Positions 7,470 through 48,297 of a DNA stretch of 64,000 nucleotides are shown piece by piece. Source of the stretch: an uncultured Myxococcales bacterium (lineage in GTDB: Bacteria > Myxococcota_A > UBA9042 > CAIXZC01); assembly GCA_964626565.1 (NCBI GenBank), contig CAZVFX010000011.1:15922-79921 (forward strand), in the 5' to 3' direction. A model generated the notes under the pieces. That model worked only from the letters and a program-made list of their open reading frames with translations. It ran no database searches and was not told the origin of the DNA. The translations under genes and the position numbers were made by a program. Each line of letters begins with the position of its first letter. Position 1 is the stretch's first letter.

Positions 7470-7917
7470 AATCGTCGGTTTCCTCTGTAACTGGTGTTCC
7501 TACACCGGCGCTGATCTGGCAGGCATGTCGCGGATGAAATACGCCCACAACGTTCGTATCGTGCGCGTCATGTGTTCCGGCCGGGTAGACCCCACTTTCG
7601 TGGTGAAAGCCTTCGCCAGCGGGGCGGACGGCGTCCTGGTGGCGGGTTGTCACCCCGGGGACTGCCATTACATCGAGGGCAACTACAAAACCATGCGGCG
7701 CATGCCACTCCTGAAGAAGATGTTGAAAGAATATGGAGTGGACGAGCGCAGGTTCCGACTCGAGTGGATCTCGGCCTCCGAAGGCGACCGGTTCGCAGAG
7801 GTGGTCAACGAGATGTCTGCCGAATTAGCTAAGTTGGGCCCGTGCAGTTTGGGGCAGGAAGGCAACGTGCCTGATCAGCCCTCTGATGTGCAACAGCCAG
7901 CAAACCCTGCCGGCTAA
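7453..7917 (+). CDS. mvhD: MvhD-like (methyl-viologen-reducing hydrogenase delta subunit) [2Fe-2S] electron-transfer protein
   Basis: N-terminus KIVGFLCNWCSYTGADLAG...MCSGRVDP...GCHPGDCHY; overlaps the hdrA end by 17 nt. Confidence 0.8.
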   Translation: MTYEPKIVGFLCNWCSYTGADLAGMSRMKYAHNVRIVRVMCSGRVDPTFVVKAFASGADGVLVAGCHPGDCHYIEGNYKTMRRMPLLKKMLKEYGVDERRFRLEWISASEGDRFAEVVNEMSAELAKLGPCSLGQEGNVPDQPSDVQQPANPAG

Positions 7918-7937
7918 GGCGAACGAAAGGAGAGACT

Positions 7938-10354: not shown

Positions 10355-10815
10355 AGACCCGGGTCATCGGCCTCGGCAACTCCATCCTCACCGACGACGG
10401 TGTTGGAATTGTGGTTGTATCCGAACTGCAGAAGACTCCGCAGGGCGGGGAGGTCGACGTCATCAGGTCCGAGGTAGCCGGCTTCGCACTGTTGGAGCTG
10501 ATGAGCGGCTGGGACCGTGTCATTCTCGTTGATGCAATCAAGTTCGACGACCTTGAGCCCGGCACCATTGTCCGCATCGATCCTGCCGACTTGCGAACCT
10601 CACTCAGGTTGCGATCGGTTCACGAAATCGACCTTCCTACCGCGCTTGCGTTCGGTCGCAAGCTCAAGATCCCCATGCCTGAGAAGGTAGTGGTCATCGG
10701 CATCCAGGCCGATGACATTCTCACGTTCGGAGAGACGTTAACTCCGGCGCTCGCCAAGGCTGTGCCAGAGGCCGTCAATCTGGTACTGGAGGAGTTGGCC
10801 GAACCCCAGGGGTGA
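10351..10815 (+). CDS. Hydrogenase maturation endopeptidase (HycI/HoxW/FrhD, peptidase A31 family)
   Basis: GLGNSILTDDGVGIVV motif; size 154 aa; ATGA-coupled to the large subunit, whose C-terminal extension it would cleave. Confidence 0.8.
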   Translation: MKTRVIGLGNSILTDDGVGIVVVSELQKTPQGGEVDVIRSEVAGFALLELMSGWDRVILVDAIKFDDLEPGTIVRIDPADLRTSLRLRSVHEIDLPTALAFGRKLKIPMPEKVVVIGIQADDILTFGETLTPALAKAVPEAVNLVLEELAEPQG

Positions 10816-29159: not shown

Positions 29160-29200
29160 CCGCCCTCTAACCCGCCTCGCAAAACAAATAACAAACCTAT

Positions 29201-29241
29201 CGGTCGATTTCTCTTGACAGCAATCGACCGCCCGGTAGAAT
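29201..29241 (+). promoter_or_regulatory. Sigma70-type promoter TTGACA-N16-TAGAAT embedded in the perfect palindrome CGGTCGATT-N12-AATCGACCG
   Basis: CGGTCGATT 29201-29209, TTGACA 29214-29219, AATCGACCG 29222-29230, TAGAAT 29236-29241; 30 nt upstream of the 29272 start. Confidence 0.55.
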
Positions 29242-29271
29242 GGTCTGTGGATAGAATGGTGGAGGGATGCT

Positions 29272-31431
29272 ATGCGAACCATGGGACCGTTGGTGTTGGT
29301 ACTCGTTGCCTCACTTCTCTGGGCATGCGCTTCGAGCATGGAGGAACAATTGGTCGCGCCGCCGGAGTCCCCCGCTTCCGGCTCCGAGCCGGAGGCAACT
29401 GGAGACAATCCGGCATCACCCGCGGACCCCGCCGAGGAATCTGATGAAGGCCCGGGATTCCAGGTGGAAGGTGGAGAGATCGTTTTGCCTCCGGATGAAG
29501 GTGGAGGATGGGCGGAAGGTGCGGATCTTCCTTCCATATCGTTCGACTCCCCCGGCGACGTAACCACCAACCCGGTAATCCTCTCTGTTCAGGGCGGAGG
29601 CCCGGTGTACAAGGTGAAGTACTTCTCGGACGGGTACCTGCTGGGCACCGCGTACAACCCGCAGGACGGTTTCCGGGTTGCGTACAACTTCAGCCAGGGC
29701 GGGGAGCGGGTTCTAAAGGCACAGGCGTACCTGGAGAACGGCAACCAGGTTGCAGCCGCGGTGCACACCACTTACGTCCTGACAGAGGGTGAGATGGCTT
29801 TTGTCTCACCCGGTGCGGACTCTTTCAACCCTGCCACCCTGATGGTGGCCTTCGACGGCCCCATCGAGCGCGTAGACTATTACGTTAACGGCTCTTTCGC
29901 CGGCGAGGGCGACACCGACTGGGACGGCTTCCCCCTGTCCTACTCCTTCCCCCACATCGGCCAGCATTTCCTCGAGGCCCGGGGGTTCGGCGCCCAGGAC
30001 GAGTTGGTCGCCAGCGCCACCGCCAAGACAGTATCCTGGGAGCAGCCCACCCTGACCTTCATCTCTCCGGCCAACATCAGCCTGAACCCGGTAGCCCTGG
30101 CGGTGAGCGTGAAAGGCCCCATCGCCAGGGTCCGCTATTACGGGGACGGTGCCTACCTGGGCCAGAGCGAGACGTCCGCCGGGGGATTTCCCGTGGCCAC
30201 ATCCGCGCTGACGCCCGGCGGCTACCGCAACCTCGAGGCTCGGGGCTACGATTCCAATGACAACGAGGTGGTTACGGCGACCAAGAAGTTCTACCTGGCC
30301 GGGGTCCCGAAGTTGAAATTCACCGCGCCGGGCTCGGCCTGCACCAACCCGGTGAAGATCTCCGTTGAATCGGCCTGGCCCATAGAGGAGGTCAACTATT
30401 ATGCGGAGGGCACGTTCCTGGGCACCAGTAAGCAGGCAACCAACGGGTTCAAGATCGAGTACACCTTTCAGAATACCGGCCAACGCCAGCTTGAGGCCCG
30501 GGGCTATTCGAAGTACGGCGACGTCCTCAACACGGCGACGCTGACGACTACGGTGAGTGAGCCTGCGCCCCAGGGTTGCCCCGCAGGGACAACCGCCGAT
30601 TGCAACGGCTACTGCGCCAACTCGGAATGGCTGGACGACAGCATCTGCGACAACGGGGTCAGCCACGAGGCGGACTATCACTGCCCACAGTTCGATTTCG
30701 ACGGCGGGGACTGCGATGGCCCAGCCTGTCCCGGGGGCAAGACCGCTGACTGCAACGGGTATTGCGCCAAATCGGAGTGGCTGGACGACGGCTACTGCGA
30801 CAACGGAGAGAACTACCAGGCGGACTACTACTGCGAACAGTTCTCGTTCGACGGCGGTGACTGCGACCCGACTGAGCCGGGTCCCGGCCCGAACCCGGGC
30901 GGTGTGCCCGACGTGCCCTACTTCTACCAGTACGCAAACAGCCTGTACCCGGGGTCGAGCTGCCAGAACACTGCGCTGGCCATGCTGCTGAATTACTACG
31001 GCTGGAACGGCACCCCCGACACCATCACTTCAGCCTGGGGGAAGAACCACGCCCAGACCCCTTCCGGCCTGGCCCAGATCTTCAATTCCTACGCCGAGTC
31101 AGCGGGCATTTCGGAACGTTTGAAGGCCCACACCGACGGCACCATCGGCGAGATGCAGGCGATGCTGGCCCAGGGCAAGCCGGTGATAGTCCACGGATAC
31201 TTCACCACCGCCGGCCACGTGATGGTCACCCTCGGCTATGACGGGTCACACTACACGGCTAACGACCCCGCGGGTAAGTGGAACCAGCAGTTCAAGGGAG
31301 GCTACCCCTACGGCTGGAACACCACAATCGGCGACCACATAAAATACGGCAAGAGCGCCTATGAGCTCGCGCTCGCATCTCTCAACGGCTCCAACTACGC
31401 GCCGCTGTGGTACCACGAGGTACTGGACTAG
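29272..31431 (+). CDS. Secreted lipoprotein: five Ig-like ~90-aa repeats + two LNR (Lin12/Notch-repeat)-like Cys modules + C-terminal peptidase C39-like (papain-fold) domain
   Basis: LLWACASS lipobox; repeats ending ...LEARGY; CNGYC...FDGGDCD twice; SCQNTALAMLLNYYG (Cys) and HGYFTTAGHVMVTLGYD (His). Confidence 0.6.
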   Translation: MRTMGPLVLVLVASLLWACASSMEEQLVAPPESPASGSEPEATGDNPASPADPAEESDEGPGFQVEGGEIVLPPDEGGGWAEGADLPSISFDSPGDVTTNPVILSVQGGGPVYKVKYFSDGYLLGTAYNPQDGFRVAYNFSQGGERVLKAQAYLENGNQVAAAVHTTYVLTEGEMAFVSPGADSFNPATLMVAFDGPIERVDYYVNGSFAGEGDTDWDGFPLSYSFPHIGQHFLEARGFGAQDELVASATAKTVSWEQPTLTFISPANISLNPVALAVSVKGPIARVRYYGDGAYLGQSETSAGGFPVATSALTPGGYRNLEARGYDSNDNEVVTATKKFYLAGVPKLKFTAPGSACTNPVKISVESAWPIEEVNYYAEGTFLGTSKQATNGFKIEYTFQNTGQRQLEARGYSKYGDVLNTATLTTTVSEPAPQGCPAGTTADCNGYCANSEWLDDSICDNGVSHEADYHCPQFDFDGGDCDGPACPGGKTADCNGYCAKSEWLDDGYCDNGENYQADYYCEQFSFDGGDCDPTEPGPGPNPGGVPDVPYFYQYANSLYPGSSCQNTALAMLLNYYGWNGTPDTITSAWGKNHAQTPSGLAQIFNSYAESAGISERLKAHTDGTIGEMQAMLAQGKPVIVHGYFTTAGHVMVTLGYDGSHYTANDPAGKWNQQFKGGYPYGWNTTIGDHIKYGKSAYELALASLNGSNYAPLWYHEVLD

Positions 31432-31456
31432 CCCCACTGGACATGGAAGGTACGAA

Positions 31457-33004
31457 ATGAGAGTTCAACGACTTGTGCTGTTCAATTGCTTCTGCTTCGT
31501 CCTGCTCTGCCTCGGTTGCGGCGAGGAGGGCTCCTCCGGCCCGGAACCGGGAGAAGTCGAGTTCCTCAACCCCGGCAAGGCGGATGAAGCCACCGGCAAC
31601 GATGCCGACACTTCCACCTCCCCCAGCACCGACGGCTTCACCCTCCCCTTCTTCGACGACAGCCACGACGAAAACAACGGGGACGGGGGGCCCGAAACCG
31701 CAGGGGACGGGGGGGCCGAAACGGCAGGGGACGGAGGGCCCGAAACGGCAGGGGACGGAGGGCCCGAAACGGCAGGGGACGGAGGGTCCGAAACGGCAGG
31801 GGACGGAGGGTCCGAAATCTCCGCGGAGAACCCCTACCCCGTCCCCGTTCTATCGGAAGAGCCTTCGCCCCAATGCGCCGCGGCGGCGGCCGATCCGTGG
31901 TACTTCCAGTACCTGGACAACCTGTGCAACGAAAAGGTGCAGCCTTCGGCGCAGGACCGGGACCGGGCGTGCCCGGTGGCGGACGAAAGTCCCTTCGCCA
32001 CCTTGCAGGACGGCAGCGTGGTCCAGTATTTTAACTCCAACACCACCCCCGCTGTTGACGGCGATGCCCTGGCGGGCTTGCTGCCCCAGGGCATGCGCAT
32101 GATCGTAATTCTCATCAAGCGCGTCGACGGAGTCCCCCACTACCGGTATATCAGCAACGGAACTCACGATATTCCGATGCAGCCGTGGAGCACCACCAAA
32201 TTCCTGGCCGCGGCCAACGCGGCGGCGTTCCTGCGGATCGAGAGCAACTACCAGGTGGGGCTCACCGCCAACGTGTCGGGCATCCCCCTGGGTGATCTTG
32301 TGACCAGCGTGCACAACTACGATAGCAGCCCATATGCTTCCAACTCCCTGGGCGCCTACTTCCACGATATCGGCGGGAGAGACCGGGCCAACGACATGAT
32401 TCACGAGGGGTGGCTGTACCGCCCGGCCAACGAGACCTTCGGCGGCAACTACGGTTCTGCTCCGCCGGCACTTGGATACACCTATTCGGAGCCGGGTGGA
32501 GCCACAGTCACGCTCCAGCCGGACCTGAGTTCCGGATACAGCAACCACCTTTCAATGTTCACCCTGGCCGAGGCGCTGAAACGCCTGGTGCTTCATATTG
32601 AGGAGCCTGAGCAACGCCTGCCGGGCATTCAGTGGAAGGACATCCGGGTGCTGCTGTTCGGCGCGGAGAACTCGGCGAAATACGGGGTCTGGGGCGGGAT
32701 GACTGCGGACACTGCCATCTATGTCCAGGCGGGGCACGATATCGACTACATCGAGCAGCGCAGTCACGGGCAGTGGACCATCTTCTCCAAGTTGGGCCTG
32801 GGCAGCCAGGGCCAGTTCATGAACGTCGGGTACGCGTGCTGGCCGGTGCTGGACGGAAACGACGACCCGGTCCCCGGCTGGGGAAGGGAGTTCGTCATTG
32901 CCGCGCACCTGGACCAAGGCGGCGCGAATTGGGATGAGCGGGATCGGCTGATGGCCCAGGCCTACCGCAAGGTGATCTTGAGGATAGTTGACGGCCGCCT
33001 GTAG
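31457..33004 (+). CDS. Hypothetical lipoprotein with a 6x GDGGPETA tandem repeat; possible SxxK/YxN serine-hydrolase-like fold
   Basis: FVLLCLGCG lipobox; start ATG 31457; PWSTTKF and GYSNH motifs (weak). Confidence 0.5.
   Translation: MRVQRLVLFNCFCFVLLCLGCGEEGSSGPEPGEVEFLNPGKADEATGNDADTSTSPSTDGFTLPFFDDSHDENNGDGGPETAGDGGAETAGDGGPETAGDGGPETAGDGGSETAGDGGSEISAENPYPVPVLSEEPSPQCAAAAADPWYFQYLDNLCNEKVQPSAQDRDRACPVADESPFATLQDGSVVQYFNSNTTPAVDGDALAGLLPQGMRMIVILIKRVDGVPHYRYISNGTHDIPMQPWSTTKFLAAANAAAFLRIESNYQVGLTANVSGIPLGDLVTSVHNYDSSPYASNSLGAYFHDIGGRDRANDMIHEGWLYRPANETFGGNYGSAPPALGYTYSEPGGATVTLQPDLSSGYSNHLSMFTLAEALKRLVLHIEEPEQRLPGIQWKDIRVLLFGAENSAKYGVWGGMTADTAIYVQAGHDIDYIEQRSHGQWTIFSKLGLGSQGQFMNVGYACWPVLDGNDDPVPGWGREFVIAAHLDQGGANWDERDRLMAQAYRKVILRIVDGRL
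31679..31822 (+). repeat. Six tandem copies of a 24-bp unit (GGGGACGGAGGGCCCGAAACGGCA-like), coding for (GDGG[PAS]ETA)x6
   Basis: Direct reading; copies are nearly identical and in frame within the 31457..33004 gene. Confidence 0.85.
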
Positions 33005-33054
33005 TTTTGGGCGGCAAACCTATACCGAACACAAATACAGAGAGGAGATGCATC

Positions 33055-33861
33055 ATGAGAACACGCATTGCGGCCGTGTGTATCAGCGCCTGCCTCGGAC
33101 TGTCCCTGCTTCCCGCGCTCGGATGCGAGGGCGCGGATGCGGGCAACGCTGACACCGAGGAACTTGGCTACCCGGACATGACTGAGGCGGCCCAGCCGGA
33201 CTCGACGTCCTCACCGGACGAAGCTTCCTCACCGGAGGCAGGAATCCCGGATGCGGACCCTCCCCTGGACATCATGGCCGAGATTGCGCCGCCGGCACCC
33301 GCTTCGGTGGCGCCGAAGCTGGCGCTCTTTCTGGAAGGGCGCTTCGATTCCACCGGGCAGGCTGCGGAGAACTTCGCCTATTTCGAGGTGCAACTGTGCG
33401 CGTGCCGGGTGCAGGCGCCGAAGTTGGGTGAGTACGTTTTGTATGTAGAGCAGGCTATGATGAGTGCCCTCGGCCAGCCCTACCGGCAGCGCATCTACGT
33501 GGTTGAGGCGCTGGAACCGGCGGAAGTGGCTGCAGTTTCCCGCGTCTTCTCGCTCAAGGACCCCGGCCAGTTCACTGGCTTGTGTGAAACGGGGTTGGAG
33601 AAGGCAGTGACCCCTTCCATGGTTGAGGAACGCAAAGGTTGTGAGGTGCTGGTGGAATGGCAAGACGGAGCCTTCCTCGGCGGCACAGCCGGTCAGAACT
33701 GCGCCAGCTCCCTCAACGGCGCCCAGTACGCCACCAGCCAGGTAGAGATCACCAAGAACCGGATTACATCATGGGATCAGGGCTTCAACGCCCAGGGCGT
33801 GCAGGTGTGGGGCGCAGAAGCCGGCCCGTACGTCTTCGATCGGAAGACCGCTATTCGGTAG
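33055..33861 (+). CDS. Hypothetical lipoprotein
   Basis: ATG 33055 with RBS GAGAGGAG; signal AAVCISACLGLSLLPALGCEG. Confidence 0.5.
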   Translation: MRTRIAAVCISACLGLSLLPALGCEGADAGNADTEELGYPDMTEAAQPDSTSSPDEASSPEAGIPDADPPLDIMAEIAPPAPASVAPKLALFLEGRFDSTGQAAENFAYFEVQLCACRVQAPKLGEYVLYVEQAMMSALGQPYRQRIYVVEALEPAEVAAVSRVFSLKDPGQFTGLCETGLEKAVTPSMVEERKGCEVLVEWQDGAFLGGTAGQNCASSLNGAQYATSQVEITKNRITSWDQGFNAQGVQVWGAEAGPYVFDRKTAIR

Positions 33862-34390
33862 GCCCGTCCACAGATCGCTCCGCCGTCGCGCTCGTCACCG
33901 TTCGCTACCCAGACCGGTGACCGAGGACCCGACATCATCTTCAGGCACAGTCCGTCTTCGAGGCGCGGGCACGAGCTCAGTCATTGGTCGGGGTAATGCA
34001 TGGTGCCGGATGCGGAGGTAGGAGCGGTATGCAGAGTCGACCCCAGGGTGTGCCTGTGGGTCGCCGCATTTATGCAGTGGGAAAGGCGCCATTGTGCCGC
34101 CCACCGTCCCTTTATCTTGGCTTCCCGAGCCAAGGTGCCTTCGAGTCGCTAGTTGCCTATGCGGAGCGTGGTGGCTTCGGGTCTGGGTGGCCGCGGACCA
34201 CCCCTACGTGTGATCCGGTGTGGTGTCTTCGAGACGGCGCGGTATCACATGGTGGTTTGTGCCTTCGGGTTTCCCGTTTCCGAGCACCATGTTCCGGTTA
34301 TCACGAAGCCGGAAGGAACGGACTCCATGGAACACCCGCGCGTGTCGAAGGCTATGGTTACCGACCCCTACCGGGCAACCGTCTTCACCA

Positions 34391-34492
34391 GCGAGCGGGG
34401 GTCCAAAAGTGAGAGGTAAAGGCTGGGGAGGAGGTAATCAGAGAAGATGGTTTCAGGCGAGTTCAGGCCGTCTCATTGAAGGACCCCCGCTC
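34391..34492. other. Perfect 12-bp inverted repeat GAGCGGGGGTCC ... GGACCCCCGCTC flanking about 78 nt, inside a 660-bp convergent non-coding gap (33862-34520). Candidate structured RNA or regulatory element.
   Basis: The two arms are exact reverse complements. The flanking genes converge, so no promoter is needed here, and the gap is unusually long for this gene-dense window. Confidence 0.3.
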
Positions 34493-34520: not shown

Positions 34521-36155
34521 TCAGCGACTCAGCCGCGCATACGGTGCCGAGGCAAGGAATGCGTCACCGACGAGGTAGCCCGCGCCGCCGGCGGCCCAGC
34601 CTACCTTCGGGATACGATTACCGGCGCTGACACTCAACGCATCTACTGCGTCCAGCGAGAGGCTGTTTACCCCGAGAGCTTCGAGGCTTGCCAGTTCCCC
34701 TTCCTGGGACTTACCGTCGCTGTTCGCGTCCTTCCAAACCAGCAGGCGGTCGAAACCGGGGTCCCGGGGGGTGACGAAGCCGTCCATGTCTGCGTCCAGC
34801 GTGCTCAGGTGGTGGAAGCCGTCTGCGAAGGTGCGATCGACGTTTCCGAACAGCTCCAGGCCGTTGTCGATGCGGCCGTTGTGGTTGCGATCCAAAACGA
34901 TGAACCCGTCGTCGGGCGCTACCCAGGCCACCGCCTGCTCACCCGTGCCGTACAAGTCGAAATTGACTCCCCGGTGGATAGGCATCAGTTCCAGGCCGTC
35001 GCCGTCGAGGTCGATGACCAGCGGATCGGACACGTTGCACGGGATCACCTGGAACACCTTGACTGAAGCGACGCTGAACTCATCCTCGATACCCTTCTTG
35101 ATGGCTTTGACATAATCGATCTCCGCCAGGGCATACTGTTGCTTCCCTTCCAGGGTGGGCGCTTCGTAACCCTCGCACAGCGGCTGCTGCTGCGCCTTGA
35201 GTTCTATGGTCGCAAGTGCGTCAGCCTTGGCGGGGCCGAGCATGGACACGTCCGCGTTGCACACTACGATGGGCTGAGACATCACCGGGTAGTCAGCCGT
35301 ATAGCCGTTGGCCGCAAGCCAGGCGTTGAACTTCTGTGCGAAGTGCTGGCGACCGATGAGCTGCCCTTTCTCGAACGAGCTCTCTTTCGGCGTGGGTTTC
35401 GCGTTGCAGATCTCTTTCTGCTTCATGTCGAACTTCACTTTCACCCGCTCTTCTTCCACCCCGCTGATGGTGCCCTGCTCGTACCAGAAGTGCGCTTCTT
35501 CAAGGTGCGTCGAGGCCTGCACGTGCTCCGGCAGGTCGTACTGATCGATGATCTGAGTCAGCTCGGAATAGACCTCTACCTTGGCCACGTCCGCGAGGTA
35601 ATCGCAGGTGTCCCCCGAGGGCTCAAAACCGTTGTCGTAGTACTTGGCAAACGGGCAGGGCTCAGGCGGCTCCTCCAGGCCGGCGTATCCACCGGCGACC
35701 TCCTGCTCGTAGTCGAAGGCCAGCCCCTTGGTTTGCAGCGCGATGGATACCGACTCCAGATAGTGGAGGCGGCCCACGTCGAGACCAAAGTCGATGGAAT
35801 CCCTCATTACCTCGACCTTCTCGAGCTCCTGCGGGGTCAGATCATTGACCGTGATTCCAGCGGGTCCGGGAGGAGTCTTTCCTTCGGCCGGATCGGGCAG
35901 GACCACCTTGGCCGGAATCCCGTAGTCGTACCTGGCCGGCTCCGGGTTGACGAAGCTCTCTTCCGGGTCCACCACGGGAATCACCTCCGTCTGCTCCTCC
36001 CCCGGCTCAGCGACCGGTTCTCCCGGGTCCTCCCACGGATATGTAGCCTCCTGACAGTAAGCCCCGGTGCACTCGTCAGTTTCGACGTCGGCGCAACCTG
36101 ACATTAGCGCCAGGACCCCCACCACAGCGAGAATCAAGACCGTTGCGTGTTTCAT
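34521..36155 (-). CDS. Lipoprotein with C-terminal EF-hand/dockerin-like DxDxDG calcium-binding loops
   Basis: Start ATG 36153-36155 (MKHATVLILAVVGVLALMSGC, RBS GGAGGG); DLDGDGLE, DRNHNGRID, DADMDGFV and DANSDGK loops. Confidence 0.55.
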   Translation of the reverse strand: MKHATVLILAVVGVLALMSGCADVETDECTGAYCQEATYPWEDPGEPVAEPGEEQTEVIPVVDPEESFVNPEPARYDYGIPAKVVLPDPAEGKTPPGPAGITVNDLTPQELEKVEVMRDSIDFGLDVGRLHYLESVSIALQTKGLAFDYEQEVAGGYAGLEEPPEPCPFAKYYDNGFEPSGDTCDYLADVAKVEVYSELTQIIDQYDLPEHVQASTHLEEAHFWYEQGTISGVEEERVKVKFDMKQKEICNAKPTPKESSFEKGQLIGRQHFAQKFNAWLAANGYTADYPVMSQPIVVCNADVSMLGPAKADALATIELKAQQQPLCEGYEAPTLEGKQQYALAEIDYVKAIKKGIEDEFSVASVKVFQVIPCNVSDPLVIDLDGDGLELMPIHRGVNFDLYGTGEQAVAWVAPDDGFIVLDRNHNGRIDNGLELFGNVDRTFADGFHHLSTLDADMDGFVTPRDPGFDRLLVWKDANSDGKSQEGELASLEALGVNSLSLDAVDALSVSAGNRIPKVGWAAGGAGYLVGDAFLASAPYARLSR

Positions 36156-36230
36156 GCTGTCCCTCCTTCCGTTGAAAAGAACGTTCCCGGGAGCCGGGCT
36201 TCCCAAAAAGGCAGCCCTTCCCCATCTTCA

Positions 36231-36273
36231 ATTCTAACGGGCGGTCGATTACTGTCAAGCTTAAATCAACCGA
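36231..36273 (-). promoter_or_regulatory. Minus-strand promoter CTTGACA-N17-TAGAAT for the 34521..36155 gene, embedded in the palindrome CGGTCGATT-N14-AATCAACCG
   Basis: Plus-strand ATTCTA 36231-36236, TGTCAA 36254-36259, CGGTCGATT 36242-36250, AATCAACCG 36265-36273. A second copy CGGTTGATTTA lies at 36316-36326 upstream of the TetR gene. Confidence 0.5.
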
Positions 36274-36409
36274 CTGGCCGATATATTTATTTCTCGTCGA
36301 GGGCAACCTGCCGGGCGGTTGATTTATTGTGTTTTTGGTGTACACTGGCCCCAACGCGGTTCTCGGTATATTTCCATACTGCGGCCTGCGCAACAGGAGG
36401 TGAGGCAAG

Positions 36410-37051
36410 ATGAGTGCCGATAGGGAGAAGCGGTCGCCGGGGCGCCCGAAGGAACCGATAAAGCGAGAGACGCTGCTCGACATTGCGCGGGGGGCGTTTG
36501 CCCAGTCAGGATTCGCCGGCGCGAGTATGAACAACATTGCAACCGAGGCGGGGCTGAGAAAATCCTCCTTGTTCCACCACTTCGACAGCAAGAGCAAGCT
36601 GTACGGGGAGGTCGTGCTGAATATCGTGGCTGAGCTCGACAACATCATTCTAGACGCCGGCACCCTTCAGGGGAGCTACCGGGAGCGGCTCGACCGCCTT
36701 AACTCCACGGTGGTGGACTACCTGGGCAGCCATCCCTGGTCTGCGTTGCTGGTGTTACGTGAGGCCCTTGATGAACAGTTGTTCATGGAGGAGGAGGGCA
36801 TGGCCACGGTGGAGAGGGCGCTGGGCCGGCTGGCCGGTTTTCTGGCCGCGGGCATGAAGGACAATGTGTTTGCCAAGTCCGACCCGAGCCAGCTCGCGGT
36901 AAGTATCGTCGCTATCCACTTCCTGCACTTCGCTGCGTCGGGTGTCGTCACCCGTTTCTTGGGCGAGGAGGTATTTGACCCGGCCTCTCTCAGCAAGCGA
37001 AACGAGATCCTGTGCGCACAGGTTCGCCGCCTCTGCGGCCTTCCCGACTGA
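36410..37051 (+). CDS. TetR-family transcriptional regulator
   Basis: N-terminal HTH RPKEPIKRETLLDIARGAFAQSGFAGASMNNIATEAGLRKSSLFHHF; RBS AGGTGAGG. Confidence 0.85.
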   Translation: MSADREKRSPGRPKEPIKRETLLDIARGAFAQSGFAGASMNNIATEAGLRKSSLFHHFDSKSKLYGEVVLNIVAELDNIILDAGTLQGSYRERLDRLNSTVVDYLGSHPWSALLVLREALDEQLFMEEEGMATVERALGRLAGFLAAGMKDNVFAKSDPSQLAVSIVAIHFLHFAASGVVTRFLGEEVFDPASLSKRNEILCAQVRRLCGLPD

Positions 37052-37077: not shown

Positions 37078-39459
37078 CTAGGGAATTATGTGTTCGGTGT
37101 AGTCGCCGTGGAACAGGACGTGCCCCGGTCCTTCGGCAGGGTATTCTATTGTCGGCTCGCCGAGGCCGATAATCACGTTATTCAGGGGCGTTCCTTCGAG
37201 GGCCGGCAGCGAGGATAGCGCGACTGAGGGAGTGCGGAAATTGCCTATCCGGTCGCTCCCTTTCTGGATGAGGTACCAGCCGATCTCCTCCACCATCGCT
37301 TCAAGCTCCTCGATCATGGGCGGCGGGGGATCGTCGTCGGGATCCGCGAAGAAGATAAGACCTTCGGCGTCGGGCAACAGCTCGAGCCCGTACTCGACGG
37401 CCCACCCCGGCTCTTTGGACACGATGATGGGCACGGTGCCTGCCAGCCAGAGCTGAGCCGCGCTGCCGTCATCGAAAGTGATCTTCACCCGCATGTCGCC
37501 CACGTGCATTACCGGCGGGTCGGCCATCACGGGCGGGTCTGCTGCTTCGATGCCCATGTCGGCCAAGGGCGGTAAGAACGCGTCCGCCTCCACAACCTCG
37601 ATAGAACTGAACGGCGGGCCCGACAGGTCGAAGCCAAGGTTCTCGAGTTCGTCCGGCGTAACCAGGATGTTGCTCATAGCCCCCGCCACCCACGCCTCCA
37701 CCAATACCTGGTTCAGCATATCGTCTGCGACTGCGAAGGCCACGTTGGTGAAGGTGGAGAGCTCCGGCTTCAATCCGTAGGAGATGGGCGCCCCCCTGGT
37801 AGGGTCAACGTTCGCAGCGCATTCAACGTGGGTGCCCAACGCCGCGTTCAAGCCTGCGTTGTCGACTGATATCGATGTGTACTTGTACGCCAGCTCCAGA
37901 CCCGCGGTCGGAAGGTCGCTCAGATCGATAAGATCCGTGATGCTGAGAGAGCTGAGGTAGGCGGCAAGGTGCTCCTCAAGGGAACCCACCAAGAGGTCGC
38001 CGCTGACCCCCGGGAGCTGCTGCTCCAGGTTCTGCTCGAATGCGGCCTGAATATCCGGAGGCAAGGCTCCGTCGTGCTCGACTGCGAACCCCTGTCCGGT
38101 GACGACCACGCCCTCCGCCTCCACCACCGCTTCGCCGTCCGGGCCGGCGGAGACCTGGATGCTACCTTCCATGGTGAGGGAGTCAAAGGTGAGCGTCCCG
38201 GTTGACTCCTGCATGGTCGCAGTCGCCTTGTAGTCGAAGCCCACGTCGGTAAGCAGGAGCGAGAAATAGAAGAAGCCCGGCTGCGCAGCCAGGTCCAGTA
38301 CCGAGGGCTGATTCAGCCAGAAATCCTCAAGCTCGAGGGTGACCGTTACCCCGGTTCCCGGAAGTAGTATTTCGTAAGATGACTCCACGTAGGAGCCCAG
38401 ATCCGTGTTGTCCACCACGGCCTGCAACATCCCTGCCGCATCGTCCGGCACGGGGGTATCGTTGTCGATGGTGTCGAGACCGAAGTGCAACAACACTCCG
38501 TCCGTCCGGGTTTCTCCGCAAGGGACTACCTCACCGTAGACGAACGAAGCCATGGCCGCGTCGGAAAGCCCTTCTTCCGTCTGGGCCTCCAGAAACACCG
38601 TCGTCATCCCGGGCAGAGGGTCCAGTTGGACGGCAAAGCTGCCGTCCGGAAACAACGGCTGCTGCTCACCGTTCGCGGTGAAACTCGCAAGCTGCACATC
38701 GGCCACCACCTTACCCGTGACGGTGACGGTCCCCAACTCCTCGACAAAGGTTCCGTGGGAAGGGTACTCGATGACGATCTTGGGGGCAGAGCTCTCTTCG
38801 CACTGCCCTTCCACACACGCCTCGTTCTCTCCGCAGCACACCCCGTCACACGCCGCGTACTCACACACACACAGCCCGCCTACACACTTGGTCCCTTCCC
38901 CGCACTCCTCGTCAACCTGGCAGCAGTTCGGATCGCAGCCACAATAGGCCTCGCACATGGGCGTCTCATCGCACTCACAGTCCAGGTCGTCGCAAACATC
39001 CCCCAGGCCATCGTCGTCGCTATCCTCCTGCTCAGGGTTGGAGTCCTCGGGGCAGTTGTCCTCGCCGTCGGGTATCCCATCGCCATCGCCGTCCGCGACG
39101 TCACCGTCGACTACGTCACCCTGGGTATCGCTGGACTTCACCAGACCGATAGAAACCGACAACGTCTGGCCGATCCCCACGATCACCACCTTGCCGTTAG
39201 CCTCGTAGCCGTCCCGGGAAACCGTAACGAAATGGGTGCCCGGTGCCACCTCAATCTGCCACGCTCCCGCCTGGTCGGTTATGGCCGATTGCCCGGTCTC
39301 CAGGGAAACAGTGGCGCCGTAAATCCGCACGTCGGTGTCCGGCTCCTCGTAAACCACTCCCTCCAGCGTACCGGTGTCAGCCTTCTCACTTCCACCGCCA
39401 GAACAGGCGCACAGGGCGACCGTTCCGACCAGAACCGCGAGCAGCAAAACATGTCTCAT
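37078..39459 (-). CDS. Large secreted lipoprotein (carboxypeptidase-regulatory-like domain, TSP3-type acidic Ca-binding stretch, Cys-rich module)
   Basis: VGTVALCACSGG lipobox; GDGDGIPDGEDNCPEDSNPEQEDSDDDGLGD; a Cys cluster; a long C-terminal region of unknown fold. Confidence 0.5.
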   Translation of the reverse strand: MRHVLLLAVLVGTVALCACSGGGSEKADTGTLEGVVYEEPDTDVRIYGATVSLETGQSAITDQAGAWQIEVAPGTHFVTVSRDGYEANGKVVIVGIGQTLSVSIGLVKSSDTQGDVVDGDVADGDGDGIPDGEDNCPEDSNPEQEDSDDDGLGDVCDDLDCECDETPMCEAYCGCDPNCCQVDEECGEGTKCVGGLCVCEYAACDGVCCGENEACVEGQCEESSAPKIVIEYPSHGTFVEELGTVTVTGKVVADVQLASFTANGEQQPLFPDGSFAVQLDPLPGMTTVFLEAQTEEGLSDAAMASFVYGEVVPCGETRTDGVLLHFGLDTIDNDTPVPDDAAGMLQAVVDNTDLGSYVESSYEILLPGTGVTVTLELEDFWLNQPSVLDLAAQPGFFYFSLLLTDVGFDYKATATMQESTGTLTFDSLTMEGSIQVSAGPDGEAVVEAEGVVVTGQGFAVEHDGALPPDIQAAFEQNLEQQLPGVSGDLLVGSLEEHLAAYLSSLSITDLIDLSDLPTAGLELAYKYTSISVDNAGLNAALGTHVECAANVDPTRGAPISYGLKPELSTFTNVAFAVADDMLNQVLVEAWVAGAMSNILVTPDELENLGFDLSGPPFSSIEVVEADAFLPPLADMGIEAADPPVMADPPVMHVGDMRVKITFDDGSAAQLWLAGTVPIIVSKEPGWAVEYGLELLPDAEGLIFFADPDDDPPPPMIEELEAMVEEIGWYLIQKGSDRIGNFRTPSVALSSLPALEGTPLNNVIIGLGEPTIEYPAEGPGHVLFHGDYTEHIIP

Positions 39460-39510: not shown

Positions 39511-39552
39511 ATTCTACCGCCCGCTAGAATTATGTCAAGGATAAATCGACCG
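39511..39552 (-). promoter_or_regulatory. Minus-strand promoter CTTGACA-N17-TAGAAT preceded by CGGTCGATTTA for the 37078..39459 gene
   Basis: Plus-strand ATTCTA 39511-39516, TGTCAA 39534-39539, AAATCGACCG 39543-39552. Confidence 0.5.
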
Positions 39553-39576
39553 CAGGGTTGACAATCTACCTTGCCG

Positions 39577-44000: not shown

Positions 44001-44123
44001 GTTGCCTGCCTGATTCCGGAAGCCGATTCAGTGAGCGGGACGTTGGTAGACGCGGCCGATGAAGCCCTCTATCGCGCCAAGGCTGAAGGCCGCAATTGTA
44101 TTCGGCAGTCAGGGGAAAACTAA
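41046..44123 (+). CDS. Sensor diguanylate cyclase: two-component-regulator beta-propeller repeats + Y_Y_Y + TM + GGDEF
   Basis: About 14 repeats of the LW[IV]GT...GGL... motif; TM FALTAFMLGAGVLYL; I-site RSED; active site RYGGEEF. Confidence 0.8.
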   Translation: MPAMAGRRGKRVGSANHRLSRSAAAATVSVLGLAAALFWAPYPTAFALAPERDTGQYVHRVWRASERGLPSNVVQTVLQTSDGYLWLGTESGLVRFDGVAFVTFDTDNTEQLQHNTIQCLFEDRDRNLWIGTWGGGLTRYRAGTFVTYTTADGLANDLIRNVAEDREGSIWIGTFGGGVSRLRNGEFTTFSTEDGLSSNEVRTLFADGEGDLWIGTRDGGLQVYRDGRFQTYGVADGLPSDYVTSLFEDREGTLWIGTIGGGLVAFKDGKFTSYGKEDGLASDQVSSVYEDRDGNLWVGTRGGGLSRRTNGRFTSFTTEHGLSNDLIRAILEDREGNLWVGTYGGGLNQFSNGAVVTYTTDEGLAGDLVWPIIEDREGAVWLGTWTGLSRLKDGKFTTFTTDDGLPKNAVFALEEDRDGALWVGTFGGGLARYRDGEFETFTTEDGLANDTILAVKEDSEGAVWIGSNGGGLTSYANKRFKVFTTADGLSNDIISCIQQDREGALWIGTRTGGLNRLQDGVFTVFGPDQGLPSQEVRAIHEDSAGSLWIGTRGGLARIVDGQLSAITTRHGLPDRIVYWILEDDRGNMWMSSGKGIWRVSLEQLNAVADGSVPRLQPVLYSESDGMKSAECNGGAQPAGWRTREGILWFPTSLGAAAIDPGLIHTAALPPPVYLESVIADDRAWSDQLISAAPLELGPGLEHLEIHYTALSFTAPEKNEFRYKLEGFDSEWVDAGSRRAAYYTSLPPGEYTFRVMASNNVGVWNETGASLSFSVAPYFHETYPFYGIFALTAFMLGAGVLYLRIRRMRRHQEQLEALVDARTGELAEANARLHKAMNRLEDTNELLEDTNLELARLATSDALTGVANRRSFDDTLAMEWKRHARYGRPLSLLILDVDHFKAYNDTYGHPGGDACLQKVAGALAQCVNRSEDLLARYGGEEFAALLPETPIKGARALAEAMCAALTALKLPHSASPTGSYVTASIGVACLIPEADSVSGTLVDAADEALYRAKAEGRNCIRQSGEN

Positions 44124-46147
44124 AAGTCAGAGCTGAATTTCGCCTGAATCTTCTTCACCACCGGTGAATCGAGTTTGTTCTCGGAGTACAGCCACACCCT
44201 GATCTCCAGGAGTTGCCCGTCGAGTCCGGGCAGCCCTTGCAAGTCAAGGGGCATGGTGTCGGGCGGATACGGCCCGAACGGGCCCTGCCATGCCGTCCCT
44301 TCCAGCCCCTGCTTAGACATCGCGGTGCGATACTCCAGTTCGATGGAACTCCCTTCCGGAATCTCCGCGTCGACGTTGATCCCCTCCCACTTCACCCGCC
44401 ACCCTTCCCACCCCCCGATCACCGTGCTGTAGTGCCCCTGCGGCGCGGTGAAGTTGTGCAGGGTGTAGCCGGTCATATCGGAGTAGGTATAGGGCGAGGA
44501 GCCCACCGGATACTCCCCCACCAGGTTCCACGTCTCCGGGTCAATTTTGGTCGCGGAGGAAGAGCTTTGATTGACCGCCCAGACATAGCCTTCGAAATCC
44601 ACGGCCATGCCGACGGGGAAGCGGTTTCCGCCCAACGCTATCTGCCCCAGCACCTGCATGGAGTCGGAATCGACCACTGCCACCGAATTTGTTTCGTGGT
44701 TGCCCACCTCCAGGCGCCCTTCCCCCCTCCCCGCGCGGCCCGGGGGCCGGGCGCCGGGGGCCGCGGCGGCCCACGTCTCGGTCCCCGGGTCGAAACGGTA
44801 CGCCACATGCCAGCAGCAACAGTTGGCGGTCCACACCCTCCCCTTGCTGTCCAAGGTAATGCCGTACGGAGAGAAGGAACCCAGGTCCGGAGTATACTGC
44901 TTCATCTCCCCTGTAACCGGGTCCACCCGCACCAGGGCATTGCCCCCGCGGCCGGCCAACCAGATAATCCCGCTGCCGTCGATAACCAATCCGTACGCGT
45001 TAACCGGTATCCCCATCTCCTGCACCACGTGCCCGTCGTCGGGATGGAGACGCCTGAGCATCTGGCTGTTCCACTCCGCAACCCACGCATGATTGTCTTT
45101 GTCCACCCCGATGGCCCGCTGACAGCTTCCCCCCGGGTTGGTCACAAATTTGACGCACTCGTCTTCGCCGGGGGCGAGCATCTCACCGCCACTGATGTGG
45201 CCGTCGCCGTTGAGGTCCTCAGACGTCTCCACCTCTCCATCTCCATCCTTGTCGGTGCAGAAGTTCTTATCCAACAGGATCTTCGCCACGCCGCCATCGG
45301 CCCGGCACGCCACCCACACATCCCCGTACAGGTCCACAGATGTTCGAGAAGGATTGCCGCAAGTCACGTACCGCCCCAACTCATTGCCGGTGTTGGTATC
45401 CAGCTTAGACACCGTGCCCTCTCCCGAATTGGCAACCCAGATAAAGGCCAGATTCATGTTGCTCGAGTCGAGTACCAGATGACCGTCCAGGTTCAAGCCC
45501 ACACTATCCGAATTCTCCTGGTCGGGAGCAAACTCCTGAATCGTCTCCGGCCCTGCGGCGACCGTGTCACACTGCGAGTCGCAATTGCCGCACGGGGACT
45601 TCACACCTTCGTCGATCTGGCCGTCGCAGTTATTGTCCTTCCCATCGCACTCTTCCGCCGCCGGCTCCACCGCACCCAGGCACGCCTGCCAGTGCCCGTC
45701 GTAGCAGCTCTGCTGCCCCGCCTTGCACTCGCCGACGCCGAGCAATTCGGGGCTGCTCCCCGGGTAACAGTCGATGCTCACGCCTTCATTGAGGCATGCA
45801 CAGCCCGCGTATATTCCGTTGTCGCAGGGCGGGCAGTAGACGTTGAGGTACTTGTTTCCCTCGTCGCAGTCGGGCCCGGCGACGCAACCCTCGCCGAAGC
45901 CGTCCAGGTCGGGATCGTCGCAGTTGGAATCGGGAGGTTCTTCTTCTTCCTCTTCTTCTTCCTCCTCCACCGGGTCAGGGGCAGCCTGCTCCGGCTCCCC
46001 GCCTTCCTCATCCCCCTCACCCCAGCCTGATCCGTTTTTGTCGACAAACCCGGGCCCTTCGCTACCGCCGACCCCTTCTGAAGTCACCGACTGGCAGCCA
46101 GCCAATACAAGAAAAATGATTGTGCACGCGAGAACAAGAGTTTTCAT
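44120..46147 (-). CDS. Lipoprotein with a poly-Glu tract, a CDGKDNNCDGQIDEG motif and a beta-propeller (NHL/YVTN-like) body
   Basis: Start ATG 46145-46147 (MKTLVLACTIIFLVLAGC, RBS GGAGGG); E10 run at 45938-45967. Confidence 0.55.
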   Translation of the reverse strand: MKTLVLACTIIFLVLAGCQSVTSEGVGGSEGPGFVDKNGSGWGEGDEEGGEPEQAAPDPVEEEEEEEEEEPPDSNCDDPDLDGFGEGCVAGPDCDEGNKYLNVYCPPCDNGIYAGCACLNEGVSIDCYPGSSPELLGVGECKAGQQSCYDGHWQACLGAVEPAAEECDGKDNNCDGQIDEGVKSPCGNCDSQCDTVAAGPETIQEFAPDQENSDSVGLNLDGHLVLDSSNMNLAFIWVANSGEGTVSKLDTNTGNELGRYVTCGNPSRTSVDLYGDVWVACRADGGVAKILLDKNFCTDKDGDGEVETSEDLNGDGHISGGEMLAPGEDECVKFVTNPGGSCQRAIGVDKDNHAWVAEWNSQMLRRLHPDDGHVVQEMGIPVNAYGLVIDGSGIIWLAGRGGNALVRVDPVTGEMKQYTPDLGSFSPYGITLDSKGRVWTANCCCWHVAYRFDPGTETWAAAAPGARPPGRAGRGEGRLEVGNHETNSVAVVDSDSMQVLGQIALGGNRFPVGMAVDFEGYVWAVNQSSSSATKIDPETWNLVGEYPVGSSPYTYSDMTGYTLHNFTAPQGHYSTVIGGWEGWRVKWEGINVDAEIPEGSSIELEYRTAMSKQGLEGTAWQGPFGPYPPDTMPLDLQGLPGLDGQLLEIRVWLYSENKLDSPVVKKIQAKFSSDF

Positions 46148-46170: not shown

Positions 46171-46212
46171 ATTCTACCGGCCGATAGGTAGGATGCAAGC
46201 ATAAATCGACCC
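46171..46212 (-). promoter_or_regulatory. Minus-strand promoter CTTGCA-N17-TAGAAT preceded by GGGTCGATTTA for the 44120..46147 gene
   Basis: Plus-strand ATTCTA 46171-46176, TGCAAG 46194-46199, AAATCGACCC 46203-46212. Confidence 0.45.
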
Positions 46213-46470
46213 GTTGGCCGATTTAATGCATTTTGTCGACGCTGACTCGGTCAACCCCGCTCCCACACCCCGAGGTCAGAAGCACTAGTCCGCACAACAT
46301 CGTTCTGAAGCTCGTGCTCGCCATGGCAGAACCTCCTCGCAAGCAAGGTCGAGTACACTCCTACCATAGTTCCAGGCCGTAATCCGCCGGTCGGTTGGTT
46401 GCTTTTTGTTTTCTGTTCCCACCCCACTTTCAGTATCATGGATCCCGTAGGAACCAAAACGAGGGTTTCG

Positions 46471-48297
46471 ATGCGCCCGGGGACCGCCGCCATGGCGACA
46501 ATTTGCAGTTTCGTGGTTCTGCTCGGATGCGGAGGTGCGAGGACCCTTGTGCCGAACGAAGTCGGAAGCGACTCGGGGGACATCCCCGGTCACGATCAGC
46601 TTGCATCCGACTCGACGGTCCCTGCCCCCGACGCAACCGAGACCGGCGCATCCACAGATGCACCGGATTCTGTGAGTGATCTGCAAGATGTGTGCGTCCC
46701 TTCGTGCCAGAATGTGGAGTGTGGGCCCGATGGCTGCGGGGGCGACTGTGGCGACTGCGAGGATGACCTGGAGTGCACCGCCAACGGCTGCGTCGACGGC
46801 TCGTGCGAATACACTCTGGTCCCGGGCCTGTGCTTGGCAGGCGTGCAATGTTGGGAGGACGGGGAGAAGCACCCGGAAAATTCCTGCCTTGTTTGCGAGC
46901 CCTTCGTAACGAATATGGGATGGAGCGTGCTGGACAACGTCCCCTGTGGCGACGGGGGCATCTGCTTTGAAGGCGAGTGCTGTGCAAAAGCGTCCAACTG
47001 CGAGGGCAAGCAATGCGGCGCTGACGACTGCGGTGGGAGCTGTGGCGAATGCCTTGAAGACGAAGTGTGCCACGAAGGAATATGCTGCACTCCCGGCTGC
47101 TGCGGCCAGCATTGGGAGGTAGACGCATGTGGGGACAGTTGCGGTGAATGCCCGGACTGGTCCGAAGGCCTGCCGGACGGACTTTGCCTCGACTCTTGCA
47201 CCGGCGTGTGCGACGACAAAGAGTGTGGGCGGGACGGCTGCGGCGGAGTGTGCGGCATGTGCAGCGATGGTGATGAGTGTACCGACGATGGTTTGTGCGT
47301 CGACCAGTGCAAGATTGACTGCTCGGGCGCCCAATGCGGGCTCAACGGTTGCGGCAAAGCTTGCGGCGCCTGCGATCCTGACTCACCCGAGTCCATCTGT
47401 ATTGATGGAGTGTGTACGGCCGGCTACCCCGACGACTGCGTGCCCGACTGCGACATGAAGGAATGTGGAGCCGACGGTTGCGGAGCCGACTGCGGCCAAT
47501 GTGAAACAGAGGGTCTGTGTACCCTGGCCGGCCGATGCGGAGGACTGTGCTCCGACTGCTCGCTTCACCAGTGGTGCTCCGAACTTGCATTCTGCGAGGG
47601 GAACCTGGCGCAATGGGCGACCACGGGCACCACGTTGGTACTTCCTCATCTGGGTCCCACCCTGGCTCCTACGGGCGGTCACATGCTCTTCCTGAGCACC
47701 GGCTGCCCCATTCCGGGCGTCACCTACGACAGTGTCCCCGGACTGTATGTTTGCGAAACGGAGAAGAGCTCCACCGCGGATTTTCAGACCTGCCTGCCGG
47801 TGGGGACTCACACCATGACCATCGTGTGGCGCATGTATTCGGAGGAGTTCAAGGCGTACTGCGGCTCCTCCTTTCAGGACTCCTTGCTGGCCGAACTCCG
47901 GGACGCCGGAGGCACCGCCACGACTCTGCTGGAGAGATCCATTGACGACTTGTGCCCCAGCGAAGAATGCGCAGTGTGCGGGGACCACTACGAAGGGCTG
48001 GAGCAGTCCGAGCTCTTCCTTGACCAGGGCGGCACGTGGAATACCCCGTGGATCACCACGGTCGTGCCCCTCGAAATTGCGGAGCAAGAGCACCTGACAC
48101 TCCACCTGGAGGTCAACGACGGAGTGGACTCGATCTACGACACCGTGTTCCTCATCGACCGGATATCTTTCACCGACTACGTCCCATGCACGCCCTCGTG
48201 CGCAGGCAAGGAGTGCGGTTCCGACGGCTGCTTCGGGACGTGCGGCCTGTGCCCGGAAGGGCAATGGTGCGAAGACTTCGAGTGCCTGGAAATCTAG
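46471..48297 (+). CDS. Lipoprotein with six Cys-rich modules C..ECG.DGCGG.CG.C and a C-terminal choice-of-anchor-like domain
   Basis: Start ATG 46471 (MRPGTAAMATICSFVVLLGCGG, RBS GAGGG); repeats CQNVECGPDGCGGDCGDC, CEGKQCGADDCGGSCGEC, etc. Confidence 0.55.
   Translation: MRPGTAAMATICSFVVLLGCGGARTLVPNEVGSDSGDIPGHDQLASDSTVPAPDATETGASTDAPDSVSDLQDVCVPSCQNVECGPDGCGGDCGDCEDDLECTANGCVDGSCEYTLVPGLCLAGVQCWEDGEKHPENSCLVCEPFVTNMGWSVLDNVPCGDGGICFEGECCAKASNCEGKQCGADDCGGSCGECLEDEVCHEGICCTPGCCGQHWEVDACGDSCGECPDWSEGLPDGLCLDSCTGVCDDKECGRDGCGGVCGMCSDGDECTDDGLCVDQCKIDCSGAQCGLNGCGKACGACDPDSPESICIDGVCTAGYPDDCVPDCDMKECGADGCGADCGQCETEGLCTLAGRCGGLCSDCSLHQWCSELAFCEGNLAQWATTGTTLVLPHLGPTLAPTGGHMLFLSTGCPIPGVTYDSVPGLYVCETEKSSTADFQTCLPVGTHTMTIVWRMYSEEFKAYCGSSFQDSLLAELRDAGGTATTLLERSIDDLCPSEECAVCGDHYEGLEQSELFLDQGGTWNTPWITTVVPLEIAEQEHLTLHLEVNDGVDSIYDTVFLIDRISFTDYVPCTPSCAGKECGSDGCFGTCGLCPEGQWCEDFECLEI

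Follow-up and report, generated by a model that had tools for sequence, protein, structure and literature searches.

In a stretch of 64,000 nucleotides from an uncultured Myxococcales bacterium (hereafter the window), near-identical promoter-like sequences stand before several genes for predicted lipoproteins, and a gene for a TetR-family regulator lies among them. This arrangement raises the question of what these promoters share besides their -35 and -10 hexamers, and of which protein would bind the shared part.

Four promoter modules share an element upstream of the core promoter

Four promoter-like modules of the form cGGTyGATTT-N2/3-CTTGaCA-N16-TAGAAT are found at 29.2, 36.2, 39.5 and 46.2 kb. 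The element CGGTCGATT is common to all four and lies 5′ of the core promoter; a fifth copy is located on the promoter of the TetR gene. These five sites, numbered s1 to s5, had been listed in a preliminary description of this DNA, and we recovered each of them at its reported position.

29201-29241, + strand: module s1, CGGTCGATTTctCTTGACA-N16-TAGAAT, with the perfect palindrome CGGTCGATT-N12-AATCGACCG; -35 TTGACA at 29214..29219 (sigma-70 consensus match), -10 TAGAAT at 29236-29241
36231-36272, - strand: module s2, CGGTTGATTTaagCTTGACA-N16-TAGAAT, palindrome present at N13 but mismatched at one position; -35 TTGACA at 36253..36258 (sigma-70 consensus match), -10 TAGAAT at 36231-36236
39511-39552, - strand: module s3; -35 TTGACA at 39533..39538 (sigma-70 consensus match), -10 TAGAAT at 39511-39516
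46171-46212, - strand: module s4, TTGCAT-N16-TAGAAT; -35 TTGCAT at 46193-46198, -10 TAGAAT at 46171-46176
36316-36326: s5, the fifth copy of the element, CGGTTGATTTA, on the TetR promoter, 85 nt 5′ of the TetR start codon

With a 16-bp spacer, s1 to s3 match the sigma-70 consensus at 11 of 12 positions and are the sole matches of this quality in the 64-kb window. TTGACA and TATAAT-like hexamers 16-18 bp apart and upstream of a gene are the features of housekeeping (sigma-70-type) promoters, and we treat the modules as putative promoters of this type. The distance between the hexamers, formerly given as 16/17, is 16 bp at all four promoters. The identical -35 and -10 boxes that had been counted as part of the module's signature are not specific to it: they are the housekeeping consensus and are used by other promoters of the window too. 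We also considered an alternative sigma factor and rejected it, since the boxes match the sigma-70-type consensus.

An independent repeat finder recovers the module as repeat family D6 and as the inverted pairs I1/I2. The modules s1 and s2 are 93% identical over 29 nt, and the conserved block of the modules runs from about -60 to about +10 (~55-75 nt). Nine near-identical copies of the locus were available from several samples, all of them metagenome contigs (including ENA SUTE22-1 samples and the 187-kb contig JGI 3300009008), and the modules present in them are all invariant except for one substitution in the -35 of s4. This substitution was seen in L123, a strain variant from another sample, and changes the s4 -35 region (window 46193-46199) from CTTGCA to CTTGCG.

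Two smaller features were noted in the modules. TGG(G/A) is found six nt past the -10 in all four, as invariant columns (e.g. 29248-29250, and 36222-36224 on the - strand), and the stretch to about +10 that contains it is probably the start region. Module s1 contains two copies of the string TAGAATGGT, at 29236-29244 and at 29252-29260 (their starts 16 bp apart), of which the second has no matching -35.

The modules precede seven lipoprotein genes

The genes behind the sites, six of them numbered g1 to g6, and the regulator gene are as follows.

29272..33861, + strand: probable three-gene lipoprotein operon g1-g3, behind s1
29272-31431, + strand: g1, C39-like peptidase with Ig-like repeats
about 31457/31475-33004, + strand: g2, no Pfam domain
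33055-33861, + strand: g3, CpeT-like
34521..36155, - strand: g4, 544-aa lipoprotein with a precomputed Pfam match to SPM, behind s2 and divergent from the TetR gene
36410..37051, + strand: TetR-family regulator of 213 aa (TetR_N and TetR_C_29), the proposed binder
37078..39459, - strand: g5, 793-aa lipoprotein, CarboxypepD_reg-like with a weak TSP_3 match, behind s3
44120..46147, - strand: g6, 675-aa lipoprotein, beta-propeller, SGL/Vgb_lyase-like, behind s4
46471-48297, + strand: seventh lipoprotein gene, behind a further site at 46381-46400

A signal peptide and a lipobox cysteine are found at the start of all seven proteins, in agreement with the earlier proposal of a shared operator/promoter module before lipoprotein genes; that the module controls these genes is a prediction. 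The proteins behind the four modules have no domains in common, and the similarity of the modules is thus not a by-product of gene duplication.

Several features of the coding and intergenic sequences were observed in this region. The interior of g2 (31655-31841) contains six copies of a 24-nt tandem repeat that encodes a Gly/Asp/Pro-rich 8-residue repeat, and the start calls of g2 vary between strains, giving proteins of 491-515 aa. The leader of g4 (~70 nt from s2 to the start codon) carries a GC hairpin with a T run behind it (36184-36209, - strand), which resembles a terminator and may be an attenuator; an Rfam search of the whole window found no known RNA element, including at this hairpin. 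The convergent genes g3 and g4 are separated by 660 bp, in which a 22-nt inverted repeat (34393-34414 and 34471-34492, 82% complementary, 56 nt apart) may act as a bidirectional terminator and a small ORF of 86-88 aa (34153-34419) is called in some strains.

The repeated unit is a 20-bp dyad

The symmetry of the element was examined with a search across the window that combined both arms, both relative orientations and spacings of 0-20. Convergent arms with four bases between 8-nt arms, equivalent to two bases between 9-nt arms, stood out. The repeated unit is thus a 20-bp dyad, AATCGACCG-N2-CGGTCGATT (9-N2-9), with the core ACCG-NN-CGGT. A half-site matrix finds eight dyads of at least 16 bits at N2 in the 64 kb, all of them inside the four promoter regions of the cluster, against 0-3 dyads at each other spacing within 0-12 and one in total in twenty shuffled windows; the matrix was trained on the arms of these same sites, for which the comparison between spacings controls and the absolute scores do not. 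Moreover, the weak outer arms, which lie outside the definition of the consensus, agree with AATCGACCG in 47 of 72 positions (p about 7e-10, binomial). The dyads and the positions equivalent to them are listed below.

29190..29209, + strand: s1 upstream dyad, AACAAACCT-at-CGGTCGATT; 4 nt between its end and the -35, right arm strong, left arm 5/9
29222..29241, + strand: s1 downstream dyad, AATCGACCG-cc-CGGTAGAAT; -10 in the right arm
36231..36250, - strand: s2 downstream dyad, AATCGACCG-cc-CGTTAGAAT; includes the -10
36264..36283, - strand: s2 upstream dyad, TATCGGCCA-gt-CGGTTGATT
36305..36324, + strand: single dyad of the TetR promoter, AACCTGCCG-gg-CGGTTGATT; right arm overlaps the putative -35
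36319-36324 and 36341-36346, + strand: putative TetR promoter, -35 TTGATT and -10 TACACT with an N16 spacer
39511..39530, - strand: s3 downstream dyad, ATTCTAGCG-gg-CGGTAGAAT; low consensus score (10 bits) yet self-complementary, includes the -10
39544..39563, - strand: s3 upstream dyad, TGTCAACCC-tg-CGGTCGATT
46171..46190, - strand: s4 downstream position, TACCTATCG-gc-CGGTAGAAT; low-scoring dyad (about 7.5 bits), includes the -10
46204..46223, - strand: s4 upstream dyad, AATCGGCCA-ac-GGGTCGATT; highest score in the window (24 bits)
46381..46400, + strand: additional dyad, AATCCGCCG-gt-CGGTTGGTT; one of the eight, absent from the preliminary description

Each strong promoter carries two dyads, which are 32-33 bp apart from centre to centre. 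Between the end of the upstream one and the -35 there are 4-5 nt; the downstream one spans the spacer and the -10, its right arm (CGGTAGAAT) containing the -10, which provides a second cause for the conservation of this arm. Most dyads are lopsided, with one arm near-perfect and the other matching at 5-7 of 9 positions. The additional dyad at 46381..46400 is located about 70-90 nt 5′ of the start of the seventh lipoprotein gene, for which a possible -10, TATCAT, is found at 46434-46439. The dyads are of the size of short palindromic operators (about 15-30 bp) and, like these, overlap or abut the -35 and -10 of the promoters concerned. Their position relative to the core promoter varies: they lie 5′ of the -35, over the -10, or, at the TetR promoter, over the -35. 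This fits an operator and not an element read by RNA polymerase.

These results also modify the palindrome that was first described. The 9-N12-9 arrangement is real at s1 and s2, but it occurs at only two of the four promoters and is better read as the inner arms of two adjacent 20-bp dyads. At s2 the palindrome is likewise present, but its upstream arm, read on the promoter strand, has to be corrected to CGGTTGATT.

Within the 84 kb surveyed, the element is restricted to one gene cluster

The element is absent from the other sigma-70-like promoters of the window (18745, 26660 (glnA) and 52678), as well as from its other probable lipoprotein or MopE-motif genes (15495, 18806, 21423, 48302 and 60250). 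A further ~19-20 kb of flanking DNA from the same organism contains no dyad above 13 bits, and within the 84 kb surveyed (window and flanks) no copies were found outside 29.2-46.4 kb. As negative controls we used ~189 kb of unrelated GC-rich DNA, in which just two sites reach 12.4 bits. This DNA came from a search for orthologues of the C-terminal domain of the C39 peptidase, which returned only short stand-alone YvpB-like proteins in unrelated contexts, and consists of their loci. Within the window, the region between the kinase and GGDEF genes, which is a dyad site in relatives, has no dyad (best score -3.4).

The preliminary description had named a generic UP-like element as the outcome that would speak against a regulon. 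As judged on these 84 kb, the element is not a generic upstream promoter element, because it is absent from the other promoters, lipoprotein genes and flanks surveyed. UP elements are A/T-rich sites for the alpha-CTD at -40 to -60 and are generic to strong promoters. Such an element was ruled out for CGGTCGATT, which is GC-rich in its 5′ half and varies in position relative to the core promoter, and which the other sigma-70-like promoters lack. A mobile promoter or MITE-like repeat was also ruled out: there are no terminal repeats, nor dispersed copies in the 84 kb surveyed.

Metagenome contigs were scanned with the strict pattern GGTYGATTT-N2/3-CTTG-N19-TAGAAT, which gave 72 stretches, none from the source organism. 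About 35 of these contigs represent one highly conserved promoter of a human-gut organism (about 44% GC); the remaining matches are scattered promoters, including a few of unrelated GC-rich bacteria. No TetR orthologue was found near these matches. In the literature, the half-site string was met in primers only.

The dyad accompanies the TetR gene in other organisms

The TetR protein contains PF00440 TetR_N (4e-12) and PF17938 TetR_C_29 (2e-11) and has the N-terminal helix-turn-helix and all-helical C-terminal ligand domain of TetR-type regulators. Its PDB and NCBIfam matches are generic for the TetR family, with no close characterised or solved relative among them, and a literature search on TetR_C_29/PF17938 found nothing relevant. 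It is the sole one-component regulator encoded in the 17-kb cluster. Among nine orthologues with 45-61% identity, the helix-turn-helix segment GLRK(S/A)SLFHHF is invariant except for the one S/A position, and a conserved operator is therefore expected. An N-terminal arm, RSPGRPxNP (residues 8-16, window 36431-36457), was noted in the same alignment, with R8, G11, R12, P13 and P16 invariant in the nine orthologues. The arm resembles the core of an AT-hook, and we may speculate that it makes contact with the ATTT flanks of the half-sites.

TetR orthologues with an invariant recognition helix, 51-61% identical in the aligned part, were found in six loci from other organisms. In all six, the best or second-best dyad of the 8-21-kb locus sits 5′ of the TetR gene or of a GGDEF-TetR operon. 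The per-locus p is about 0.01-0.03, giving a Fisher's combined p of about 3e-6 for the six loci, a value to be read with the facts that the upstream region was chosen after the matches in L204 and L212 had been seen and that these two loci are not mutually independent. With the source organism, the motif is thus 5′ of the regulator in 7/7 organisms. Where the TetR gene directly follows a Reg_prop/Y_Y_Y-GGDEF gene, the dyad is found 5′ of that operon. The linkage of the TetR gene with those for the C39 peptidase, a ~800-aa lipoprotein, a Ser/Thr kinase and a GGDEF protein is kept despite rearrangements.

Alignments of the upstream regions point to the same sequence. In five aligned TetR upstream regions the sole conserved block is CG-NN-CGGTTGATT; this arm contains a -35-like TTGATT, and its conservation at TetR promoters may partly reflect promoter function. 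In the intergenic alignment of L204 and L212, the longest invariant run is the dyad ACCGGCCGTTCGGTTGAAT. Half-sites are also found at zero spacing in L203 (ATCGACCGGCCGAT). Target genes can keep the site as well: in L208, the g6 orthologue that adjoins the TetR gene has the dyad AACCTACCG-at-CGGTATTTT, placed with respect to its -35 as in s4, and in L212 the top dyad of the locus sits 5′ of the g5 orthologue. No dyad was found at the promoter of the g4 orthologue in L202.

The view that the TetR protein is the best candidate binder, put forward in the preliminary description, is strengthened by these data, as the same dyad lies on its own -35 in the window and is the top or second dyad 5′ of its gene or operon in six of six other loci. 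The second part of that proposal, autoregulation together with control of the divergent g4, fares unevenly. An operator on the regulator's own promoter that is conserved in orthologous loci is the mark of autoregulation, and a putative operator of this kind was found here (36305-36324, and six of six loci). As for g4, direct targets of TetR-family proteins are reliably predicted from divergent neighbours at less than 200 bp and less so above (PMC3511530); the start codons of g4 and the TetR gene are 254 bp apart (36156-36409), which weakens that predictor only.

An unlikely alternative is that the dyads are operators of another transcription factor encoded elsewhere, the TetR gene being merely one of its targets. 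Binding by the TetR protein is deduced from sequence, 84 kb of the genome were covered, and a higher-level regulator would likewise place a dyad 5′ of the regulator gene. Against this, the motif follows the TetR orthologue through rearrangements in six organisms, including moves before the GGDEF-TetR operon, the recognition helix is invariant except for the S/A position, and no other DNA-binding protein is conserved in these clusters.

Some of the related loci show features of their own. On the - strand of L210 (3299-3565), an 'orphan' promoter with a dyad over its spacer and -10 (CTTGACAaACCGACCGttCGGTATATT) lies between the convergent genes for the ~800-aa lipoprotein and the kinase; it is followed by two GC-rich hairpins with no gene called, and may represent a small RNA or an inversion relic. 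In L202, the region 9600-9870 between an 1830-aa gene and the TetR orthologue contains two copies of the 22-nt direct repeat ggatgcggtgcgacggcacatt, together with two inverted repeats of about 25 nt at ~115 nt from each other, an arrangement that looks like a small MITE-type insertion.

A predicted autorepressor with paired operators

Taken together, we consider it reasonably probable that the cluster is governed by a TetR-family autorepressor with paired 20-bp operators on the lipoprotein promoters. As read from sequence, the pattern is the one by which comparative genomics usually recognises a local autoregulated repressor. In this model, a dimer of the TetR protein (36410-37051) would bind the operator AATCGACCG-NN-CGGTCGATT. 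The two operators of each strong promoter, at 32-33 bp or about three helical turns, would probably present their dimers on the same face of the DNA, possibly allowing cooperative binding. With both occupied, RNA polymerase would be excluded and the lipoprotein genes would be off; a ligand at the C-terminal domain would then release the repressor and let the near-consensus promoters fire. Autoregulation would come from the single dyad that overlaps the -35 of the TetR promoter, and the further copy 5′ of the seventh lipoprotein gene would bring that gene under the same putative control.

This model can be compared with known systems. In the TetR paradigm, each regulated region has two palindromic operators (PMC3511530). 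As in tetR-tetA, a regulator with a TetR_N helix-turn-helix adjoins its putative targets here; each regulated region has a pair of short palindromes, putative operators that overlap parts of the core promoter, another such site lies on the regulator's own promoter, and g4 is divergently transcribed. The locus differs from TetR/tetO in its targets, which are secreted lipoproteins whereas tetA encodes an efflux pump, and in having at least five transcription units with operators over 17 kb instead of one divergent pair. Its operators are also longer (20 bp, 9-N2-9, against 15 bp), 254 bp separate the TetR gene from the divergent gene, and the protein is without a close characterised or solved relative. 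The locus likewise resembles the cases in which the regulons of local autoregulated repressors are inferred from a motif on the regulator's promoter and on clustered targets, conserved in orthologous loci; it differs from them in that the organisms are all uncultured and represented by metagenome contigs only, and in that the regulon is read within the cluster.

Long operators bound by two TetR-family dimers exist as well, QacR IR1 being an example. The inner arms of s1 and s2 do form a ~30-bp palindrome over the promoter, and two dimers per promoter are expected here too. The difference is that we favour two distinct 20-bp dyads, one on either side of the -35 and centred 32-33 bp from each other, and that the long palindrome is present at two of the four promoters. 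That the functional unit would nevertheless be this palindrome, CGGTCGATT-N12/13-AATCGACCG centred on the -35 and acting as one ~30-bp operator (e.g. for two TetR dimers), with the weak outer arms irrelevant, has in our opinion only a small chance of being correct. It is perfect at s1 (16/16 over 8-nt arms) and nearly so at s2 (15/16), and no part of the module is better conserved than the inner arms. However, s3 and s4 reach only 13/16 and 12/16 at N12/13, with no convincing downstream inner arm. Moreover, the single site of the TetR promoter, the site at 46381 and those of the other organisms are left unexplained by it, all of which fit 9-N2-9, and arm centres about 21-22 bp apart are too far for one dimer.

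Repression by the TetR protein can also be set against activation. If the sites bound an activator, TetR or other, that recruits RNA polymerase from -40 to -60, the best-conserved arm would be where it should be, since about -47 to -39 is a classical activator position, and the dyad at 46381 would lie at about -64 to -45 of a promoter that has no good -35. Some TetR-family proteins do activate, AtrA being mentioned (PMC3511530). This is nonetheless improbable: three promoters that match the consensus at 11/12 positions with a 16-bp spacer should need no activator, and a protein on the second dyad, over the -10, or on the TetR-promoter dyad, over the -35, would block polymerase. Finally, copying of a strong promoter cassette by promoter duplication or gene conversion, with no regulator and with the extra bases as passengers or an unusual upstream promoter element, would account for the 93% identity of s1 and s2 over 29 nt and for a conserved block from about -60 to +10 that includes the TGG after the -10, but it is very improbable, as it predicts neither dyad symmetry at one fixed spacing nor the motif at non-homologous TetR promoters in six organisms, and as the element is GC-rich, unlike an UP element, is missing from the other sigma-70-like promoters of the window, and has no terminal repeats or further copies in 84 kb.

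Significance of the cluster

By domain content and operator logic, the system would be a member of the TetR-family repressor/operator class, and the locus most probably represents a gene cluster of an uncultured bacterium under ordinary repressor control. The concept is the standard TetR paradigm and opens no new question. It does offer a regulon that is concrete and open to testing, for a TetR subfamily that is uncharacterised and a lineage that is uncultured, with a defined 20-bp putative operator, five or six target promoters, seven lipoprotein genes and a conserved linkage to a kinase and a c-di-GMP cyclase. Furthermore, a promoter with an 11/12 consensus match between two operators could be put to use as a tight inducible switch, provided that the ligand is identified first.

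A wider interpretation is possible though doubtful. The cluster could represent a previously undescribed conserved module of uncultured bacteria, in which a TetR protein with an AT-hook-like RSPGRPxNP arm would clamp near-consensus promoters between two operators three helical turns apart. It would thereby switch a set of surface lipoproteins (C39-like peptidase, beta-propeller, CpeT-like and others) and, being linked to a Ser/Thr kinase and a Reg_prop/Y_Y_Y diguanylate cyclase, would form a ligand-gated programme of cell-surface remodelling.

Elsewhere in the window (2645-10815), we noted a heterodisulfide-reductase-like / MvhD / [NiFe]-hydrogenase gene cluster with a maturation protease, which suggests an anaerobic, hydrogen-metabolising lifestyle of the source organism.
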